64,000 nucleotides of DNA from an uncultured Mycoplasmatota bacterium (lineage in GTDB: Bacteria; Bacillota_I; Bacilli_A; RF39; UBA660): contig URBY01000001.1 of NCBI GenBank assembly GCA_900546245.1, positions 10,038 through 74,037 on the forward strand. The letters are read 5' to 3'. Of this stretch, positions 41,899 to 50,409 are shown one piece after another. Each line of letters starts with the position of its first letter. Positions within the stretch are counted from its first letter, which is position 1. Below the pieces are notes generated by a model that was given only the letters and a program-made list of their open reading frames with translations, was not told where the DNA came from and searched no databases. Both the position numbers and the translations under genes were made by a program.

Positions 41899-42753
41899 TT
41901 AATCTTCTTCTATATTTTTGATTATTGTTTCTAAATACTCTTTATCCTTTATCTTAGTAATCGCAAAACATTTATTACCTAAATCTTTATAGCTTGCTCC
42001 TGAATGATACAATACTTTTTTATCAAGTATTATGAATCTATCATGAAACTTATCACTGTATATTACTTTCAAATTATGGTATTGCCTATTATATTTTTTT
42101 ATATCTATATCTTTTAATAAATTAAATTTTTTAGTTACAATAGTTACTTTTACATTTAGGTTCGTAATCATATCTAAAATACTTTTGTCTTCATAATTAT
42201 CTATTATAATTATTTCTTTCTTTGCTTCTTTAAATATATCAATTAATAGTGAATATGCATCATATATTTGTCCTTCATAAAATATTGTATTAATTTTCTC
42301 TTTTTCATTTAACTTATCAAAAGATTCCTCTAATTTTAAAATTCTTTCTTCATGATTTAATATTATTGAAGTTTTATTTTCAAATGATAAATACCTTTTC
42401 ATATAAACAAATGCATCGATTATTTTCATACTTACAATATCTGCAACAGGTGTTTTAAGTATTGTTGCAAGCATTGCGACTCCCTGTTCTGTAAACGCAT
42501 ATGGCATTGTTCGAATTTTATTAACTTGCGGTCCCATGTTGGGACCGCAAATATTTTTAAATTCTAATTCATTAAGTTGAAACATATATCTTTCTGGAAA
42601 CTTATTTATATGTCTCTTTACTGCTTGATTAATAGTTTTAGTTCCGTTTGTACATTCATATAATCTTGCTAAATCCGAATCTAGCATTACTTGTTTACCT
42701 CTTATTTCATATATCATATCTTCTATGCTTAAATCTTCTTTTAATTCGTACAT
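41899..42753 (-). CDS. ORF6N-domain (Ant/antirepressor-like DNA-binding) protein with an uncharacterised C-terminal domain, 284 aa
   Basis: N-terminus IYEIRGKQVMLDSDLARLYECTNGTKTINQAVKRHINKFP… (ORF6N). AGGAGG RBS. Confidence 0.6.
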   Translation of the reverse strand: MYELKEDLSIEDMIYEIRGKQVMLDSDLARLYECTNGTKTINQAVKRHINKFPERYMFQLNELEFKNICGPNMGPQVNKIRTMPYAFTEQGVAMLATILKTPVADIVSMKIIDAFVYMKRYLSFENKTSIILNHEERILKLEESFDKLNEKEKINTIFYEGQIYDAYSLLIDIFKEAKKEIIIIDNYEDKSILDMITNLNVKVTIVTKKFNLLKDIDIKKYNRQYHNLKVIYSDKFHDRFIILDKKVLYHSGASYKDLGNKCFAITKIKDKEYLETIIKNIEED

Positions 42754-42813
42754 AATTCGCCTCCTATACTTATATTCTCTATAAATAACTAAAATTCCAC
42801 TAAAAAAAGAGAA

Positions 42814-43758
42814 TTAATTAGAATTTTCTTTAGCTTTTCTAACTAATTCCCTTATTTTTCTAAGTCTATGATTAATACAAGACTTCGTTACCTTATTACC
42901 TGTTTCTATTGAAATTATCTCACTTAATTCTATTAATGAACTTTCAGGATACTTTAATCTATAATTTGCAACTTCTTTAACTTTATCATCAAGTAAATCA
43001 TATGCATCTATTTCTTTTAAATAATTAATATCATCAACTTGACTTTGAGCAGATTTCATACTCTTTTCTATATTTGCTTGTTCACAGTTATTTATTCTAT
43101 TAGTCATATTAACTTTTTCTCTATATGTTCTTATATCTTCATAATAAAGTACTTCTTCATAAGCCTTTATTATAGTTAATAATTCACTAATCTTTTCTGA
43201 TTCTTTAATATAAACCATATAACCTTTTTTTCTTCTATGTACTTTTGAATTTAAATTATATTCATTTAATAGATTATTCAAAAATTCTGCAAATTCCAAA
43301 TTTTCTATTAAAAACTCCAAATGATATCTTGATGTCTTTGGATCATTTACACTTCCACATATTAGGAAACATCCTCTTATAAATGCTCTTTTAAGTTCAT
43401 CATCCGCAACTATAAACTCACTAGGAACCTTTAGTAAATCAAAACCTTTTTCATTAAGTAAACCTAAATCTTTTATTATTGTAAGTACATCTTTTTTAAT
43501 TTCAATAATATATACTTCATTCTTTTTAAAGTTATAATTCTTCTTTATAGTTATATTAGATGTAACATTATATATTTCTTTAACTATTTTAAATATTCTA
43601 TTTGCAACATTTATATTTTCTGTTTGAATTCTTATTGCATACAATTTTATATCAGCGCTTGTTCTAATTATTCCAGATAATTCTGATATATATTCAAGTT
43701 TAGTACATTCTAGATTTGATATTTCTTTTTTTATTTTTCCTGAAAAAGTCATAGCCAT
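42814..43758 (-). CDS. whiA: Sporulation/cell-division regulator WhiA (LAGLIDADG-like + HTH), 314 aa
   Basis: MTFSGKIKKEIS… N-terminus and a C-terminal HTH region. The likely true start is the second ATG at 43752. Confidence 0.8.
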   Translation of the reverse strand: MAMTFSGKIKKEISNLECTKLEYISELSGIIRTSADIKLYAIRIQTENINVANRIFKIVKEIYNVTSNITIKKNYNFKKNEVYIIEIKKDVLTIIKDLGLLNEKGFDLLKVPSEFIVADDELKRAFIRGCFLICGSVNDPKTSRYHLEFLIENLEFAEFLNNLLNEYNLNSKVHRRKKGYMVYIKESEKISELLTIIKAYEEVLYYEDIRTYREKVNMTNRINNCEQANIEKSMKSAQSQVDDINYLKEIDAYDLLDDKVKEVANYRLKYPESSLIELSEIISIETGNKVTKSCINHRLRKIRELVRKAKENSN

Positions 43759-43764
43759 TACTCC

Positions 43765-44616
43765 TTACTTTAAATCTTTTATTATTGATAAAGCCGCTAT
43801 TGCTCCATCTGATGCCGCAGTTACTATTTGATATACTTTTTTCTTAATTATATCTCCTGATGCATAAATACCATCTATATTAGTTTTCATATTTTCATCT
43901 ACAACAATATAATTATTATCAAGTTTTATATTAAGTGATTTTATAAAATCAATATTAGGTGTGTATCCATTTTCTATAAACAATCCATCTATAGCATATT
44001 CTTTATCATCTATAGTTACAGTTTTAATAATTTCATCATTAACATTTAAATTGCTTATTTTTTTATTAATAACTTTAATATTATCTTTATCAAAAGTTAT
44101 ATCATCATCACTATAATTAACATATATTAAACTGTTTACTATATTACTTAAGTATATTGCATCATTTTCACTTTCTTTATTATTACCAATAAGCATAACA
44201 TCTTTACCATTATATAGTGAACCATCACATTTAGCACAATAACTTATATTAAGTGCATGTTTTTTTAATATATCAAGTTTTTTTTCTACTCTGCCACACG
44301 CAATTAATATAGTTTTAGTTTTATATTCATTCTTTTCTGTTTTGACAACCTTTTCTTTACCATCTATAACATCAATTACTTTTTCTGTTTTAATAGGAAC
44401 TCCTAAATTAATTACTTGTTCATACATATCATAAGCAAGAGAGCTTGCATCTATATTTTTAAATCCTAAATAATTATTTATTTTATCAGTTTTAAGCAAT
44501 TTCCCACCAGGTACATTTTTTTCTAAAATAAGTATATTTTTATTTGCATTCTTAAGATAAAGTGCCGCACTTAAAGATGCTGGTCCCGCACCTATTATAA
44601 TAGAGTCATAAATCAT
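43765..44616 (-). CDS. Thioredoxin-reductase-like flavoprotein (FAD-dependent disulfide oxidoreductase), 283 aa
   Basis: FAD-binding GAGPAS, redox CxxC (CAKCDG) and a C-terminal ASGD. The NAD(P)H-binding Gly motif is degenerate. Confidence 0.6.
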   Translation of the reverse strand: MIYDSIIIGAGPASLSAALYLKNANKNILILEKNVPGGKLLKTDKINNYLGFKNIDASSLAYDMYEQVINLGVPIKTEKVIDVIDGKEKVVKTEKNEYKTKTILIACGRVEKKLDILKKHALNISYCAKCDGSLYNGKDVMLIGNNKESENDAIYLSNIVNSLIYVNYSDDDITFDKDNIKVINKKISNLNVNDEIIKTVTIDDKEYAIDGLFIENGYTPNIDFIKSLNIKLDNNYIVVDENMKTNIDGIYASGDIIKKKVYQIVTAASDGAIAALSIIKDLK

Positions 44617-45404
44617 TATTTTACCTCCATTTCATTATAGTACTTTTTATTTCTATTTGTTACTATAATAATTATTCCAATTATTATACCTATTAATGAT
44701 ACAATTTGGGCAATCTTTAAACCGAAGAACATTAAACTATCTGTTCTAAGTGCTTCTATAAAAAATCTTCCTATTCCATACCATATAAAATAAAAACCTA
44801 TTTGAAAACCTTTTCTTAAATTTTTATTTCTTCTTGCAATCATTAATATTATAAATCCTATTAAACACCAAATACTTTCAAAAAAGAATGTTGGATAATA
44901 ATATTTACCTTCTATATGCATTCCATTTATTATAAATTCAGGTATATGCATATTTTTTAAATTTTGATATGTTGTAATTCCTCCATGTGCTTCTTGATTA
45001 AAGAAATTACCCCATCTTCCAAAACTTTGTGCAATTATAACCGCAGGCGCTACTATATCTAATATTTTTATAAAACTAACATTCTTTTTCTTAGTATAAA
45101 AGTATACAAATATAAGTCCCGCAATTACCCCTCCATGAATCGCAAGTCCACCATTATATATTTTTAATATTTCTGATGGATTTGCTAGATAATAATCTAA
45201 GTTAAATACACAGTAATAAACTCTCGCACCTAATATTCCAATTATTAATGTATAAAATATTAAATCACTTGTAAATTCTTTTGTTAATCCTTGTTTTTTT
45301 CCTTCTCTTGTTATTAATATGTACGCTACTATAACACCTAAAAGTATACACAAAGAATAATAATATACATTAAATCCAAATATATTAAATGCAACTCTAT
45401 TCAT
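44616..45404 (-). CDS. lgt: Prolipoprotein diacylglyceryl transferase, 262 aa
   Basis: Lgt signature region …GARVYY…HGG.IAG… and polytopic topology. Confidence 0.85.
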   Translation of the reverse strand: MNRVAFNIFGFNVYYYSLCILLGVIVAYILITREGKKQGLTKEFTSDLIFYTLIIGILGARVYYCVFNLDYYLANPSEILKIYNGGLAIHGGVIAGLIFVYFYTKKKNVSFIKILDIVAPAVIIAQSFGRWGNFFNQEAHGGITTYQNLKNMHIPEFIINGMHIEGKYYYPTFFFESIWCLIGFIILMIARRNKNLRKGFQIGFYFIWYGIGRFFIEALRTDSLMFFGLKIAQIVSLIGIIIGIIIIVTNRNKKYYNEMEVK

Positions 45405-45813
45405 TATTACACCTTCTTATTATTGGTTTTACTATTAATTCTTCTACAAAGAAATTCATAATACTAATACATATTGCGATTAAAAGTCCACTCCAAAATC
45501 CATATATATTAAAATGATCCCCAAGTATTAAATCCACAATTTTTAATATTAAAAAGTTTATAAATGGATAAAATAGTCCAAATGTTAAGGCTGTTATTGG
45601 TATTGTTAACTTAAATATAATTGGTCTTATTGTTTTATTTAATACATAAATAATAACTACCGCTAAAAGTTCATACCAAAAGTTATCCACATCAAAAGAA
45701 TTAAATATAGCATCTACAATAAGAAATACAAGTGTATAACCTAATATATATAACACTGAATCTAAAAACTTATTAATTCTAACACTATTTTTTTCTTTTA
45801 TTACCACTTTCAT
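45397..45813 (-). CDS. YvlD/DUF360-family four-TM membrane protein (holin-superfamily-IV-like), 138 aa
   Basis: Four hydrophobic helices in 138 aa. Overlaps the lgt start by 8 nt. Confidence 0.45.
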   Translation of the reverse strand: MKVVIKEKNSVRINKFLDSVLYILGYTLVFLIVDAIFNSFDVDNFWYELLAVVIIYVLNKTIRPIIFKLTIPITALTFGLFYPFINFLILKIVDLILGDHFNIYGFWSGLLIAICISIMNFFVEELIVKPIIRRCNNE

Positions 45814-46065
45814 ATTATCATATTCCTCTCTCTTATTCTTTTATAACAAATATTTTCTTTCCAAAGAGATTATAACACAAATATTTTAAAATAAAAAGAT
45901 GTTTTCCTAAAAACATCCACTATTTTTCTTCTTATTTTATTTAATTATCTTGTACAATTCTCTCTGGTGTTTCAAAAAATTATTATTTTAACAGTTAATA
46001 CATATAATTATTGTTAATATTTTTGATCAAAATTATATAAACAAGATATTTCAATTCTGAAAATA

Positions 46066-46270
46066 AAAGAACTTTTATAATAAAAGTCCTTCTATACATT
46101 TCTATCATTTTATCTCTACTTATAGTAATAAAAATATGACACCTATTCATTAAAATTATATGTCTCTTTGATTATTCAGGTTAGACACTCAACTCGACAA
46201 AACTGAATGTTCCCTTTTTTTATGAAGTTTCCTTCATCTATATTCATAATAACATATATTTTATATTTTA
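46066..46270. repeat. Degenerate copy 1 of a roughly 230-bp duplicated module (peptide ORF without start/RBS, antisense promoter retained)
   Basis: Shares AAAAGAACTTTTATAATAAAAGTCCTTC and …TATGAAGTTTCCTTCATCT(A/G)TATTCATAATA… with copy 2. Confidence 0.5.
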
Positions 46271-46393
46271 TCAATAAATTTGTATAAAATTGTACTTGTT
46301 CGCTTGTTTTACATTATTAACTATGAGATAATATATTTGGAACATTTAATGTGAGTGCTATCCTCCAATCTTAAGAAAGAAAGGAGGGATACA

Positions 46394-46486
46394 ATGAAGA
46401 AAAGAACTTTTATAATAAAAGTCCTTCGTCTTATTGCTATCATTTTATTACTCCTTACCTTACTGGTAATAGCAATAAAATTATAA
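46394..46486 (+). CDS. 30-aa hydrophobic peptide (candidate type I toxin)
   Basis: MKKRTFIIKVLRLIAIILLLLTLLVIAIKL. An AGGAGGG RBS lies 5 nt upstream and can pair with an upstream CCTCC. Confidence 0.4.
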   Translation: MKKRTFIIKVLRLIAIILLLLTLLVIAIKL

Positions 46487-46589
46487 GGCACTCTATCATC
46501 TCTGATTGAGTGCCACCCAAAACTTTGAGGATGACATTCACTTGCAGATTTAAATGTTCCTCTTTTTTATTTTATGAAGTTTCCTTCAT

Positions 46590-46626
46590 CTGTATTCATA
46601 ATATCATATTATTTAATATTTTTCAA
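46590..46626 (-). promoter_or_regulatory. Convergent promoter (TTGAAA-17-TATTAT) for a putative antisense RNA
   Basis: Minus strand TTGAAAaatattaaataatatgaTATTAT. Copy 1 has TTGATA-17-TATTAT at the equivalent place. Confidence 0.3.
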
Positions 46627-46637
46627 CATTAAAAAAA

Positions 46638-47330
46638 TTATTCATTATTTAAATTTATTCCATCTATACAATTTTCATAAATCCAAATCTTTAAATTATC
46701 CATGATACCACTTTCATAATATTTAATAAGTTTTTCATAAAACTCTGCTTGTTTATCTTGTGCAATACTTATAATTCCATTTCCATTATCTATCATTATT
46801 TTATTGGCAAACAACATTGCTACCCTTTTATTACCATCAATAAACATTTGTCTTCTCATAATATATAACATCACTTCAATTGCAATTTCTGTTGTGGTTT
46901 TATCTTGTTCACTAAGTAATTCTTCTAATTCTTCTTTTATTTTACTTTCTATAGGAAAATCAGGTTTCCAAGTTGTACCTCCTATATTAACTGGAGTAGT
47001 TCTAAGTTTACCAAGGTTTTGTTCTAATACTAGTTTATCTACAGTCAACTTATGAATATAACATAAAGTATTGTAATCACTTTTTATATCTTTATTTTCT
47101 AATATAAATTCCCAGGCATATTTTAAATTATTTATAGCAATTATATTATCTACTGTAAGCCCATTTACTATTCCACCATCATATATTGCTTGTGTTTCTG
47201 GATATGTAACACCTATACCTTCTAAATTTGCACTTTTCCATATATAGTCAACAATGTTTCTTTTTGCTATAAATACATTTTGTTCTCTTGTTAAATTATA
47301 TTTATTTTCCATATGTAAACACCTCATCAT
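46638..47330 (-). CDS. Fic/Doc-family protein with a Doc-type motif lacking the catalytic His (QMFIDGNKR), 230 aa
   Basis: SANLEG (inhibitory-helix-like motif) and RRQMFIDGNKRVAM, which matches Doc HxFx(D/N)(A/G)NKR except for Gln in place of His. Confidence 0.6.
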   Translation of the reverse strand: MMRCLHMENKYNLTREQNVFIAKRNIVDYIWKSANLEGIGVTYPETQAIYDGGIVNGLTVDNIIAINNLKYAWEFILENKDIKSDYNTLCYIHKLTVDKLVLEQNLGKLRTTPVNIGGTTWKPDFPIESKIKEELEELLSEQDKTTTEIAIEVMLYIMRRQMFIDGNKRVAMLFANKIMIDNGNGIISIAQDKQAEFYEKLIKYYESGIMDNLKIWIYENCIDGINLNNE

Positions 47331-47386
47331 TAACTAAATTATAACACAAAATACATATTATTAAAATCTTTTAGAAAAAAGAACGT

Positions 47387-50197
47387 CTATAAAACGTCCT
47401 TTAAATACATTCCTGTATAGCTCTTTTCATCTTGTACTATCTTTTCTGGAGTACCTGTGAATATTACTTCACCGCCTAAATCTCCACCTTCCGGTCCTAA
47501 ATCAATTATATGATCTGCTTGCGCAATTACATCTAAGTTATGTTCAATAACAATAATAGTATCACCATTATCAACAATTCTATTTAATATTTCAAGTAAT
47601 TTTTTAACATCATGAGTATGTAAACCAGTTGTAGGTTCATCAAGTATAAATAAACTTTTACCTGTAGGTTTCTTTTGAAGTTCTTTCGCAAGTTTTACTC
47701 TTGATGCTTCACCACCAGATAGTGTTGGTGCACTTTGTCCAAGTTTCATATATCCAAGTCCTACATCTTTTAATACTTCAAGTTTAGATTTTACTTTAGG
47801 TATATTTTCAAAGAATACATAAGCATCTTCAACAGTCATATCAAGTACTTCACTAATATTTTTACCCTTATATTTTATTTCTCTTGTTTCACTATTATAT
47901 CTAGTACCTTTACATACTTCACAAGGAACATATACATCAGGTAAGAAATGCATTTCAATTCTTTTAACACCATCACCAGAACAAGCTTCACATCTTCCAC
48001 CTTTTACATTAAATGAAAATCTACCTTTATCATATCCTCTTATTTTCGCTTCTTTAGTAACCGCGAATACTTCTCTTATATCATCAAATACGCCTGTATA
48101 AGTTGCAGGATTACTTCTTGGTGTTTTACCAATTGGATCTTGAGTAATACATACAAGTTTATCAAGATTTTCAATACCCTTTACTTCTTTACATTTACCA
48201 GGTTTCTCTTTTGATTTATAAAGTTTATTTCTAACAGTTTTAGATAATATTTCATTAACAAGTGTACTTTTACCAGAACCAGATACGCCTGTTACACATA
48301 TAAATTTTCCAAGTGGAAATTTTACATTAATATTTTTTAAATTATTTTCTTTTGCGCCTTTTACTTCAAGATATAATCCATTACCTTTTCTTCTCTTTTT
48401 AGGTACTTCTATTCTTTCTTTACCAGATAAGTATCTTCCTGTTAAACTATTTTCATTATTCATTACTTCTTCTGGAGTACCTGCTGCGACTACTTCACCA
48501 CCATGTACGCCTTGAAGTGGACCAATATCTACTAAATAATCAGCTTGTTTCATAGTATCATGGTCGTGTTCTACTACAATTAAAGTATTACCTAAATCTC
48601 TCATTTCAAGCATTGAATTAATAAGTCTTTGATTATCTCTTTGATGAAGACCTATTGATGGCTCATCAAGTACATAAAGTATTCCAGTAAGCCTTGAACC
48701 AATTTGAGTCGCAAGTCTAATTCTTTGACTTTCACCACCAGATAAAGTTGCGGCACTTCTATTTAATGTTAAATATTCAAGTCCAACATTATTTAAAAAT
48801 GATAGTCTATCTTTTATATCTTTTAATACTACTTCAGATATTTTTGCTTGTTCTTTTGTAAGTTTTAATTTACTCATAAAATCAAAGCATTTTTTAATAC
48901 TTAAATTACATACATCATATATGTTTTTTCCATTTATAAATATATTTAACACGCTATCATTAAGTCTCGCACCATGACAATGTTCACACTCTTGATCTAT
49001 CATATATCCTTCAAGCCAATCTCTAATAAATGATGAATTTGTTTCTTTATATCTTCTTTCTAAAAGACCAATAACTCCTTCATATATTTCAATCTTGTCA
49101 TATGCATTTCCGCCTTTTGATTTAAACTTAAATCTAATTGCGTCATTACTTCCATATAATACCAAATTAAGTTCTTTTTTAGTAAGTTTTTCAATTGGTT
49201 TATTCATATCAATTTTATACTTATCACAGAATATTTCTAACTTTTGAATATATATATTAGTGTCTTCCATATTCTTAAATGGTAATATTGCGCCATTATT
49301 TAATGATTTTGTTTTATCTGGAATAACTAAATCTACATCCATTTTTTGTTTAAATCCTAAACCTTTACAATATGGACATGCTCCATATGGCGCATTAAAT
49401 GAAAATATTCTAGGTTCAAGTTCTCTTAATGAATAATTACAATGTGGACATGAAAAGTTTTCACTAAAAATTATTTCTTCTCCACCAACAACACTTATTA
49501 CAACTTTTCCACCAGATAACTTTGTACTTGTTTCTAATGATTCATAAAGTCTACTTCTTATTCCATCCTTTATAATTAATCTATCTACAACAACATCTAT
49601 ATTATCTTTTATATTTTTTTCTAGAGTAATTTCTTCATTTAAATCATATATCTCACCATTTACTCTAACTCTTGAATATCCTTCTTTTCTAATTCTATTA
49701 AATGTATCTGCGTGAGTTCCTTTTTCTCCTTCAACTATAGGGCTTAATACCATAATTTTTGTGCCTTCATCAAAATTCATTATCTTATTTGTCATTTCTT
49801 CAATAGATTGACTTGTTATTGGTATATGATGAGTAGGACAATATGGTACTCCAACTCTCGCAAATAAAAGTCTTAAATAATCATATATTTCTGTTACTGT
49901 ACCTACTGTTGATCTTGGATTTCTATTTGTTGTTTTTTGATCAATACTAATCGCTGGACTTAAACCCTCTATTAAATCAACATCAGGTTTCTCAGAACCT
50001 CCTAGGAATTGTCTTGCATAACTGCTTAAGCTTTCTACATATCTTCTTTGTCCTTCTGCGTATATTGTATCAAATGCTAATGATGATTTACCTGAACCAG
50101 ACACACCTGTCATAACAATTAATTTATTTTTTGGTAAATCTATATTTATATTTTTTAAATTATTTTCTCTTGCTCCTCTTATTATTATTTTATCCAT
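47387..50197 (-). CDS. uvrA: Excinuclease ABC subunit A, 936 aa
   Basis: MDKIIIRGARENNLKNI…, two ABC modules (GVSGSGKSS and GVSGSGKST) and Zn-finger Cys clusters. The ORF is open six codons further upstream, but the RBS supports the start at 50197. Confidence 0.9.
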   Translation of the reverse strand: MDKIIIRGARENNLKNINIDLPKNKLIVMTGVSGSGKSSLAFDTIYAEGQRRYVESLSSYARQFLGGSEKPDVDLIEGLSPAISIDQKTTNRNPRSTVGTVTEIYDYLRLLFARVGVPYCPTHHIPITSQSIEEMTNKIMNFDEGTKIMVLSPIVEGEKGTHADTFNRIRKEGYSRVRVNGEIYDLNEEITLEKNIKDNIDVVVDRLIIKDGIRSRLYESLETSTKLSGGKVVISVVGGEEIIFSENFSCPHCNYSLRELEPRIFSFNAPYGACPYCKGLGFKQKMDVDLVIPDKTKSLNNGAILPFKNMEDTNIYIQKLEIFCDKYKIDMNKPIEKLTKKELNLVLYGSNDAIRFKFKSKGGNAYDKIEIYEGVIGLLERRYKETNSSFIRDWLEGYMIDQECEHCHGARLNDSVLNIFINGKNIYDVCNLSIKKCFDFMSKLKLTKEQAKISEVVLKDIKDRLSFLNNVGLEYLTLNRSAATLSGGESQRIRLATQIGSRLTGILYVLDEPSIGLHQRDNQRLINSMLEMRDLGNTLIVVEHDHDTMKQADYLVDIGPLQGVHGGEVVAAGTPEEVMNNENSLTGRYLSGKERIEVPKKRRKGNGLYLEVKGAKENNLKNINVKFPLGKFICVTGVSGSGKSTLVNEILSKTVRNKLYKSKEKPGKCKEVKGIENLDKLVCITQDPIGKTPRSNPATYTGVFDDIREVFAVTKEAKIRGYDKGRFSFNVKGGRCEACSGDGVKRIEMHFLPDVYVPCEVCKGTRYNSETREIKYKGKNISEVLDMTVEDAYVFFENIPKVKSKLEVLKDVGLGYMKLGQSAPTLSGGEASRVKLAKELQKKPTGKSLFILDEPTTGLHTHDVKKLLEILNRIVDNGDTIIVIEHNLDVIAQADHIIDLGPEGGDLGGEVIFTGTPEKIVQDEKSYTGMYLKDVL

Positions 50198-50409
50198 GAA
50201 AAACACTTCCTTCAAACATGTATTATACCAAATTATTTTAAATTAACACAAGCGAACAAATTAATTTTTTTGAATATTATATTATGGGTGATAATAATAT
50301 AATTATTTTTATATATTTATAATTGATGAATTAAATAAAATAAATAAATAAAATAATTGAATTTAATAGAAAATTCTACTATAATTGTTAGTAAATAAGG
50401 GAGAATATT

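Follow-up and report, generated by a model that had tools for sequence, protein, structure and literature searches.

A small-peptide locus with a convergent antisense RNA in uncultured gut Bacilli: a candidate new family of type I toxin-antitoxin-like modules

Between a DUF360/holin-4-like gene (45397-45813, minus strand) and a Fic gene (46638-47330, minus strand), a stretch of 64,000 nucleotides (nt) from an uncultured Mycoplasmatota bacterium (contig URBY01000001.1, assembly GCA_900546245.1; hereafter the window, with a G+C content of ~25%) holds two related segments in a gap of 824 base pairs (bp), which raises the question of what this doubled intergenic element encodes. A preliminary description of the window proposed a duplicated type I toxin-antitoxin-like module, formed by a small membrane peptide, an occluded ribosome-binding site, a convergent cis-antisense RNA ending at a hairpin located after the stop codon, and a decayed duplicate. 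Comparison with homologues supports all four traits, and we consider that the second segment (copy 2, 46304-46626) is probably an intact type I toxin-antitoxin-like module on the chromosome, with transcripts and toxicity that we infer, and that it represents a family not described before. The coordinates of its features, and of those of the first segment (copy 1, 46059-46274), are collected in Table 1.

Homologues were retrieved from a one-genome-per-species collection with an exact 25-base pattern taken from the 5' part of the open reading frame (ORF) of the peptide. The module was found at 74 loci in ~68 species-level assemblies, labelled as uncultured Bacilli, Tenericutes or Erysipelotrichaceae, or as Clostridium sp. 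CAG:433, Candidatus Onthousia and Candidatus Faecimonas, and three of the carrier assemblies are circular genomes of 1.26-1.52 megabases. Among 59 distinct full-length copies, similarity starts at the -35 box of a plus-strand promoter and stops at the -35 box of a minus-strand promoter, the sequences outside being unrelated, and the unit is therefore self-contained, ~330 bp long and bounded by two convergent promoters, as it is in copy 2. The neighbourhoods are nearly all different (115 flanking proteins fall in 96 clusters), and the module is therefore no cis-element tied to one gene. A protein search with a 43-amino acid (aa) GTG-start frame containing the 30-aa peptide led likewise to six called proteins with the same peptide, in unrelated gene neighbourhoods. 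The module had no blastn match in plasmid and phage collections, the 25-base pattern had none in IMG/VR viral contigs, and the module is not evidently plasmid- or phage-borne.

Type I toxins are defined as hydrophobic peptides of ~20-60 aa encoded by a short mRNA (PMC8594479). The peptide of copy 2 has a hydrophobic stretch of ~17 residues, and its short membrane-span ORF lies on a predicted mRNA within the 150-400 nt of this class. The ORF, the AGGAGGG preceding it (46382-46388) and the upstream CCTCC (46362-46366) are all present at copy 2, as first reported. Could the 30-codon frame nevertheless be incidental, in a repeated non-coding element, either a structured RNA pair or a mobile intergenic repeat? 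Such an element would suit the nucleotide conservation, which is near-uniform over the whole transcribed region, beyond the ORF, as well as the many contigs that break at the module, the location of much of the ORF in conserved RNA helices, and the modest excess of variation at third codon positions (79 variant cells, versus 47 and 37 at positions 1 and 2), an excess that we consider to be modest because most of the ORF is also part of those helices. We regard this explanation as very improbable, since the frame is intact in 65 copies, with 38 distinct nucleotide sequences, and the stop is held at codon 31 in all 65 while switching between TGA, TAA and TAG. Five codons are used for Arg-12 among the homologues (CGT, CGA, CGC, CGG and AGA), 26 of the 65 distinct codon changes (40%) are synonymous, compared with 24% expected at random, and nearly every copy has a strong Shine-Dalgarno (SD) sequence 5-6 nt upstream of the ATG. 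Replacements in the peptide occur chiefly among I, L, V, F and M. Diverged subfamilies identified with nhmmer also retain a peptide of 29-30 aa with the same design (MKTKTFIIKVLKLIAIILSLLIIMIVVIKK and MKKKDLLISFLILIIILLIVSLMILCIKK), despite their differing nucleotides. The preliminary description had itself considered that the module might prove to be a repeated intergenic element without coding potential in other genomes; frame and stop position are kept in the 65 homologues.

Other frames of the locus were examined and discarded. A plus-strand ORF starting with MKFPSS (46574-46705, and 46207-46287 in copy 1) is devoid of a ribosome-binding site, and the homologous DNA corresponds to the covarying 5' hairpin of the antisense RNA, with a different sequence and early stops, while a minus-strand ORF of 56 aa (46321-46491) is the mirror image of the peptide ORF over a partly palindromic block and has no support. 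Two called proteins, P0007 (136 aa) and P0008 (141 aa), have the peptide at residues 16-45 with a W immediately after it; we rejected them as true longer proteins, as both are artefacts of read-through, the TGA stop having been decoded as Trp under genetic code 4. Inside the coding region, an invariant block of 28 nt over codons 3-11 (46400-46427) folds as a hairpin (AAG-A-ACUUUUA / UAAAAGU-C-CUU), and this hairpin is retained through compensatory changes (GAGUUUA / UAAACUC) in the second copy of locus L015, which belongs to a diverged subfamily, suggesting an RNA-level role within the coding region.

On the opposite strand, the two antisense promoters previously pointed out, TTGAAA-17-TATTAT in copy 2 and TTGATA-17-TATTAT in copy 1, were both found by a promoter scan, each with a TG before the -10 box. 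The window by itself shows no enrichment of such sites, its 9 promoter-like sites comparing with 11.3 expected in shuffled sequence, and the candidate promoters are convincing only via comparison with the homologues. In these, the -35 box of the antisense promoter is TTGACA (22/53) or TTGAAA (11/53), the -10 box is TATTAT in 36/53, a TGn motif is present in 47/53 and the spacing is 17 nt in 48/53; the promoter scores 10-11 of 12 in 38 of the 53 copies. The toxin promoter has TTGTTT in 31/52, TATAAT in 43/52 and a spacing of 17 nt in 44/52, and its TGn motif, observed in the window (TG at 46324-46325), is inconsistent in the homologues (TG in 8/52). Judged from these sequences, the antisense promoter, being nearer to consensus, is stronger than the toxin promoter, which would be a moderate one of the sigma-A type. 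Pairwise identity in the two promoters is only 54% for the spacers and 71-92% for the hexamers; selection, and not recent copying, therefore accounts for the conserved hexamers and transcribed region.

The antisense RNA itself was predicted in the earlier description to be ~100 nt long, starting near 46583. Such an RNA is supported by our analysis, with a start more likely at ~46591, 7 nt after the -10 box, and a length of ~115 nt. It would be perfectly complementary to ~100 nt of the mRNA (46473-46572), comprising the last four codons and the entire 3' untranslated region (UTR), with a duplex energy of -170 kcal/mol. Along the antisense RNA we identified, in this order, a 5' hairpin, an A-rich single-stranded stretch (the complement of the U-tail of the mRNA), the complement of the mRNA terminator and the end hairpin. 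The 5' hairpin lies outside the mRNA and has other stems in the homologues (AUGUAAG/CUUGCAU, CAAG/CUUG flanked by AUG/CAU or ACG/CGU, and GUAAG/CUUAC). Its register varies, and RNAalifold recovered only 12 pairs on the MAFFT alignment of the antisense RNAs, for which reason it was analysed sequence by sequence. The end hairpin is the perfect GGCACTC/GAGTGCC stem already recognised immediately past the stop (46487-46514), and termination of the antisense RNA at this point, also proposed earlier, agrees with a fold of -16.7 kcal/mol (z-score, z, -4.1) on the minus strand, followed by UUAUAAUUUUAUU; the stem (helix 8) shows compensatory changes from A-U to G-C and from C-G to U-A.

It is hardly credible, in light of these data, that there is no antisense transcript, the minus-strand features being by-products of AT-rich sequence and the post-stop hairpin acting within the mRNA only. 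That hairpin is about equally stable on both strands and, as stated, promoter-like sites are no more frequent in the window than in shuffles, but a U-tract follows the hairpin on the minus strand only, and ~50 homologues retain the -35 and -10 boxes, the TGn motif and the 17-nt spacing in spite of diverged spacers. Furthermore, similarity passes the mRNA terminator exactly up to the antisense promoter and then ends, and the hairpin between this promoter and the mRNA end covaries and is stabler on the minus strand in 33 of 37 variants (Wilcoxon p = 2e-6). An antisense gene complementary to the toxin mRNA, a further trait of type I systems, is predicted from sequence and comparison, by its promoter, 5' hairpin, terminator and overlap.

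The predicted mRNA folds with a minimum free energy of -71.1 kcal/mol (z -7.6). When the fold of the window mRNA was projected on 50 homologues, 92.9% of the cells were paired, versus 43-52% when the partners were slid by 1-3 columns, a percentage that is favoured by construction, since the aligned sequences are related and the structure was taken from a single one of them. More weight attaches to the double-sided changes, which are observed in 18 pairs, compared with 6.9 +/- 1.5 in shuffles, and none of 500 shuffles reaches 18. The clearest covariation in the mRNA is that of the long-distance helix (helices 1-3) that joins its 5' end to its 3' part, where pair 14/251 is GC in 28, GU in 14 and AU in 6 sequences, pair 15/250 is AU in 39, GC in 3 and UA in 2, and pair 13/252 is UG in 30, UA in 18, AU in 1 and CG in 1. 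The terminator cannot explain this covariation, because the covarying 3' positions sit in the loop of the terminator hairpin, and the many G-U pairs make the helix valid on the plus strand only.

Occlusion of the ribosome-binding site by the upstream CCTCC, suggested from the window alone, is borne out by the alignment, where the helix between anti-SD and SD (helix 4) is paired in 96% of the cells, and helices 1-4, which comprise the SD stem-loop and the 5'-end helix, are paired in 91-98% with compensatory changes. In nine homologues of different subtypes, both the long-distance helix and the sequestered SD are predicted in all, and the probability of the SD being unpaired is <=0.05 in 8/9. 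The AUG is also buried, in a helix with codons 12-17. We considered binding of the antisense RNA as what closes the SD and rejected it, as constrained folding shows the SD closed in both states. The mRNA terminator was missed by a simple terminator scan, its loop being longer than 8 nt; the substitutions that weaken it in the window leave the long-distance helix paired. The toxin promoter, the mRNA terminator, the covarying 5'-3' helix and the sequestered start codon had escaped the preliminary description, as had a 1.1-kilobase (kb) absence in Clostridium sp. CAG:433 (see below).

Table 1. Predicted features of the two copies (positions in the window; SD, Shine-Dalgarno; z, z-score)
Feature	Position	Strand	Details
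Putative toxin ORF, 30 aa, MKKRTFIIKVLRLIAIILLLLTLLVIAIKL	46394..46486	+	basic N-terminus (MKKR), single hydrophobic span
Toxin mRNA promoter	46304..46332	+	-35 TTGTTT 46304-46309; 17-nt spacer; -10 GATAAT 46327-46332
Predicted toxin mRNA, ~232 nt	46339..46572	+	from conserved GGAACAUUU 5' end (~46339) to U-tract (~46572)
Long-distance helix, 5' strand (mRNA nt 1-19)	46339..46357	+	pairs with 46539-46560
Long-distance helix, 3' strand	46539..46560	+	within mRNA terminator region and antisense overlap
SD-sequestering local hairpin	46362..46388	+	CCUCC 46362-46366 pairs with GGAGG 46383-46387 in minimum-energy fold
mRNA terminator-like end	46527..46575	+	GAGGA..ACAUU / AAUGU..UCCUC, then U6AU4; sequence conserved
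Antisense promoter	46598..46626	-	-35 TTGAAA 46626-46621; 17-nt spacer; TG 46606-46605; -10 TATTAT 46603-46598
Predicted antisense RNA, ~115 nt	46474..46591	-	fold -33.7 kcal/mol, z -4.5
Antisense 5' hairpin, AUGAAG-GAAA-CUUCAU	46574..46589	-	-6.1 kcal/mol, z -4.8; outside mRNA
Antisense terminator	46474..46514	-	hairpin 46487-46514, then U-rich tract 46486-46474, overlapping last four codons
Copy 1 toxin ORF remnant (ENKRTFIIKVLLYISIILSLLIVIKI*)	46059..46139	+	start-less, without ribosome-binding site, 12-nt deletion in frame
Copy 1 antisense-RNA-like gene	46128..46274	-	promoter TTGATA-17-TATTAT 46274-46246, TG before -10

From these features we propose that the full-length mRNA would be closed in three ways: by the 5'-3' helix, which engages its first 19-22 nt, by the anti-SD hairpin and by the helix that contains the AUG. 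The antisense RNA would pair with the 3' UTR, displacing the mRNA's own 5' end, and the duplex would be cut by RNase III and degraded, so that no peptide would be made, by analogy with TxpA/RatA and BsrG/SR4 (PMC8167048). Since the SD is predicted to be closed with or without antisense RNA, the latter was assigned a function in decay and not a direct one in translation. Should the level of antisense RNA fall, the stable folded mRNA would persist and be translated after some activating step, which in hok and aapA1 is 3' trimming (PMC8167048; PMC6733600), and the peptide would then enter the membrane and arrest or kill the cell. Over its first ~27 nt (GGAACAUUUGAU..GUGAGUGUCG.CCUC), the mRNA nearly duplicates the internal hairpin of the antisense RNA (GAGGAACAUUCGAU-loop-GUGAAUGUCGCCUC), so that both would be in competition for one strand of the 3' UTR. 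A three-way switch may be imagined on this basis, and we put it forward only as a doubtful extension of the proposed mechanism: the mRNA would carry a built-in cis mimic of its antitoxin, guarding both the 3' UTR and the 5' end, and strand displacement by the antitoxin would expose the mRNA to nucleases and release the 5' segment with its CCUC, which would then further occlude the ribosome-binding site. If true, this would be a regulatory logic undescribed for the known families with 3' overlap, found in uncultured gut Bacilli with small genomes.

Several points weigh against the module being a type I system. The two transcripts are predicted, and so are their ends and relative amounts. The charges of the peptide are N-terminal, with no polar or charged C-terminal tail, which is typical of Gram-positive type I toxins (PMC2887945; PMC6563280), and the peptide matches no toxin profile: it had no match in Pfam (E-value up to 1), no relevant match in NCBIfam (E-value up to 10) and no match in PADLOC, and a phmmer search of 1.84 billion representative proteins gave only five matches, all of the same peptide family. 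A search of region 45700-46800 against Rfam (E-value up to 10) returned only chance-level matches (such as PyrR and MCS4) and no antitoxin family. Lack of homology between type I families is, in fact, the rule (PMC6563280). The homologues are mutually related, so the shuffle statistics overstate their independence, and the conservation of the 25-base block is a product of the exact-pattern search. The SD is predicted to be sequestered with or without bound antisense RNA. Finally, the mRNA terminator of the window (46524-46575) is weak, with -7.2 kcal/mol and z -1.0, compared with -12.4 kcal/mol and z -3.3 for the family consensus.

Some of these points would also suit a gene for a small membrane protein without toxicity, which could serve a membrane complex as a regulatory or accessory subunit; its expression would be tuned by a 3' antisense RNA, and it would form no addiction or toxin module. 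The N-terminal charge cluster, the lack of a toxin family match and the chromosomal location, without plasmid, phage or viral contig matches, are consistent with such a protein, and the very high conservation of the peptide would suit a specific protein partner too. We consider it unlikely, given that no partner gene is conserved, the neighbours differing in nearly every genome, and that the module shows presence/absence polymorphism among close relatives, with frequent tandem duplication, pseudogenised copies and truncations. Moreover, a three-layer translation lock combined with a stronger antisense promoter is the pattern of genes whose product must stay off. We therefore retain the toxin-antitoxin interpretation as the probable one.

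The architecture had been described at first as the hallmark of Fst/TxpA/BsrG-type loci, and membership of a known family was to be searched for. The architecture is indeed of that kind, whereas the searches against Pfam, NCBIfam, PADLOC and Rfam gave no family match: the module belongs to none of the Fst, TxpA/RatA, BsrG/SR4, AapA or hok families, and is of their general kind. As in TxpA/RatA, from the skin element of Bacillus subtilis (with SprG/SprF as relatives), the toxin and antitoxin genes are convergent, and cleavage of the duplex by RNase III is the mode expected here too (PMC8167048; PMC8594479). In contrast, there is no sequence similarity, TxpA has 59 aa and another layout, the module has no match to RatA in Rfam, and its mRNA adds the covarying 5'-3' helix and a local anti-SD hairpin. 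With both TxpA/RatA and BsrG/SR4, the latter from the B. subtilis SPbeta prophage, it shares a convergent antisense RNA whose overlap with the 3' part of the mRNA takes in the last codons of the ORF (here the overlap is 46474-46572 and the ORF ends at 46486). BsrG/SR4 resembles it further in having an antitoxin promoter stronger than that of the toxin (PMC8167048), and in bsrG the region around an SD that is partly sequestered is remodelled by binding at the 3' end (PMC8167048), a 3'-5' link which would here be provided by the long-distance helix. The module differs from BsrG/SR4 in having no sequence similarity to it, in being chromosomal and outside a prophage, and in an SD predicted to be fully sequestered even without antisense RNA.

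In dimensions, the module is almost the same as Fst/RNA II (par of pAD1, Enterococcus faecalis), which has an mRNA of ~230 nt and a peptide of 33 aa, against ~232 nt and 30 aa here. Convergent promoters, an SD-sequestering 5' stem-loop and a helix that hides the extreme 5' end of the mRNA are common to both (PMC7472228). Nevertheless, the peptide has no match to the Fst/Ldr profiles of Pfam and NCBIfam and its charge cluster is N-terminal, the antisense RNA, ~115 nt long, reaches into the end of the ORF, and par has one shared bidirectional terminator whereas two are predicted here (antisense, 46487-46514; mRNA, 46527-46575). No clear second complementarity at the translation start, like that of DRa/DRb in par, was found: the best duplexes of the antisense RNA with the mRNA's 5' half have z from only -0.9 to -3.1 against shuffles, at positions inconsistent across homologues. 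A 5'-3' lock of the full-length mRNA with a sequestered SD is also described in AapA1/IsoA1 of Helicobacter pylori and in hok/Sok (PMC8167048; PMC6733600). These are Gram-negative systems whose antisense RNA is directed at the 5' portion of the mRNA, while here it targets the 3' strand with which the mRNA 5' end pairs, and the module has no sequence similarity to them and no Hok/Gef or AapA match in Pfam. CD2517.1-RCd8 of Clostridioides difficile and its relatives likewise comprise small unannotated ORFs with convergent overlapping antisense RNAs, and are multicopy modules without homology to other toxin families (PMC6563280). Their toxins have 34-59 aa, an N-terminal membrane span and a lysine-rich C-terminus, unlike the 30 aa and N-terminal charges observed here, and they are often prophage-borne or beside CRISPR arrays, whereas no phage association was found for the module.

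Taken together, we regard the module as real and as representing a well-supported new family of a kind already known, on evidence that is entirely computational. A literature search returned no description of type I systems in this lineage, and the module would extend such systems to uncultured gut Bacilli with small genomes (Clostridium sp. CAG:433, Candidatus Onthousia, Candidatus Faecimonas and relatives). The ORFs of type I families are too short for gene callers and the families have no shared sequence similarity; here at least two of the five called relatives among the representative proteins are read-through artefacts. With ~70 aligned members, an mRNA structure supported by covariation and two mapped promoters, a covariance or hidden Markov model is at hand for genome annotation. 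The existence of the locus will not surprise a specialist; what is useful is its breadth (~68 species), the quality of the covariation and the target shared by the 5' end and the antitoxin, in what would be a compact natural case of a 5'-3' mRNA lock and a 3'-overlapping antitoxin using one strand.

The duplication noticed in the preliminary description was confirmed by a 28-mer (46065-46092 and 46400-46427) and an 18-mer (46222-46239 and 46574-46591), each present exactly twice in the 64 kb, with 0.00 and 0.15 such repeats expected by chance. The two copies are 79% identical across ~340 bp, at an offset of 335-352 bp, which corrects the spacing of 330 bp first given. Copy 1 indeed has no ATG, GTG or TTG start and no ribosome-binding site and retains its antisense promoter, as stated earlier; it has also lost the toxin promoter and the 5' UTR, and in an nhmmer search it matches only positions 63-234 of the profile. 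Its 5' hairpin (46222-46237) is identical to that of copy 2, its antisense terminator hairpin is decayed and the z of its RNA fold is only -1.4. Copy 1 is a pseudogenised tandem duplicate, which is present also in Clostridium sp. CAG:433. Its putative antisense RNA would form a partial duplex of -53.9 kcal/mol with the mRNA of copy 2, compared with -34 +/- 4 kcal/mol in shuffles, and cross-talk between the two is possible on this modelling; we claim no function for the copy 1 RNA.

The locus of Clostridium sp. CAG:433 (L027) is 93-97% identical to the window over 42211-46277 and 47389-50312, and it is devoid of the 1.1 kb between them (46278-47388), with copy 2 and the Fic gene, while retaining the remnant of copy 1. 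This remnant (46059-46139) is identical at 81/81 positions in the two genomes, the copy 1 antisense promoter is 84% identical and the surrounding intergenic DNA ~94% identical; the full identity of the remnant is unexpected in a pseudogene, with small numbers. The Fic protein matches the PADLOC defence candidate PDC-S04 (E-value 1.5e-10) and, weakly, Doc, and its gene ends 12 bp before the antisense -35 box without a terminator of its own. In the window, the intact copy travels with this Fic/Doc-like gene, a marker of accessory DNA.

Tandem repeats were used by Fozo et al. as a search criterion for type I loci (PMC2887945). This trait, which is not strictly defining, is seen in the two copies of the window and in several genomes with 2-3 loci; second copies are also present in L009, L015, L031, L038, L062 and L070. 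Diverged second or third copies lie near the main copy at L015:2769-3009, L038:1692-1941, L070:619-858, L031:1027-1266, L062:2276-2519 and L039:2905-3101; the subfamilies that these nearby copies define, which include those with the two peptides given above, have the same promoters, 5' UTR design and terminators. Locus L001 contains a chimera (L001:2996-3100), called as a protein of 63 aa (P0003), in which a main-type ORF is preceded by the fused remnant of an MKKKDLL-type ORF in place of the usual 5' UTR and anti-SD, and at L053:1304-1380 the module is truncated at its 3' end right beside a tRNA-Arg(tct) gene. In L031, L038 and L051 the module adjoins a gene for a Txe/YoeB-like protein of 90 aa, a type II toxin as judged by sequence alone, which hints at small toxin-antitoxin islands. 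Across L001-L080, the putative toxin gene is mostly on the strand opposite to its neighbours (43 versus 18 upstream and 39 versus 15 downstream), and read-through from these neighbours would therefore yield antisense and not toxin RNA.

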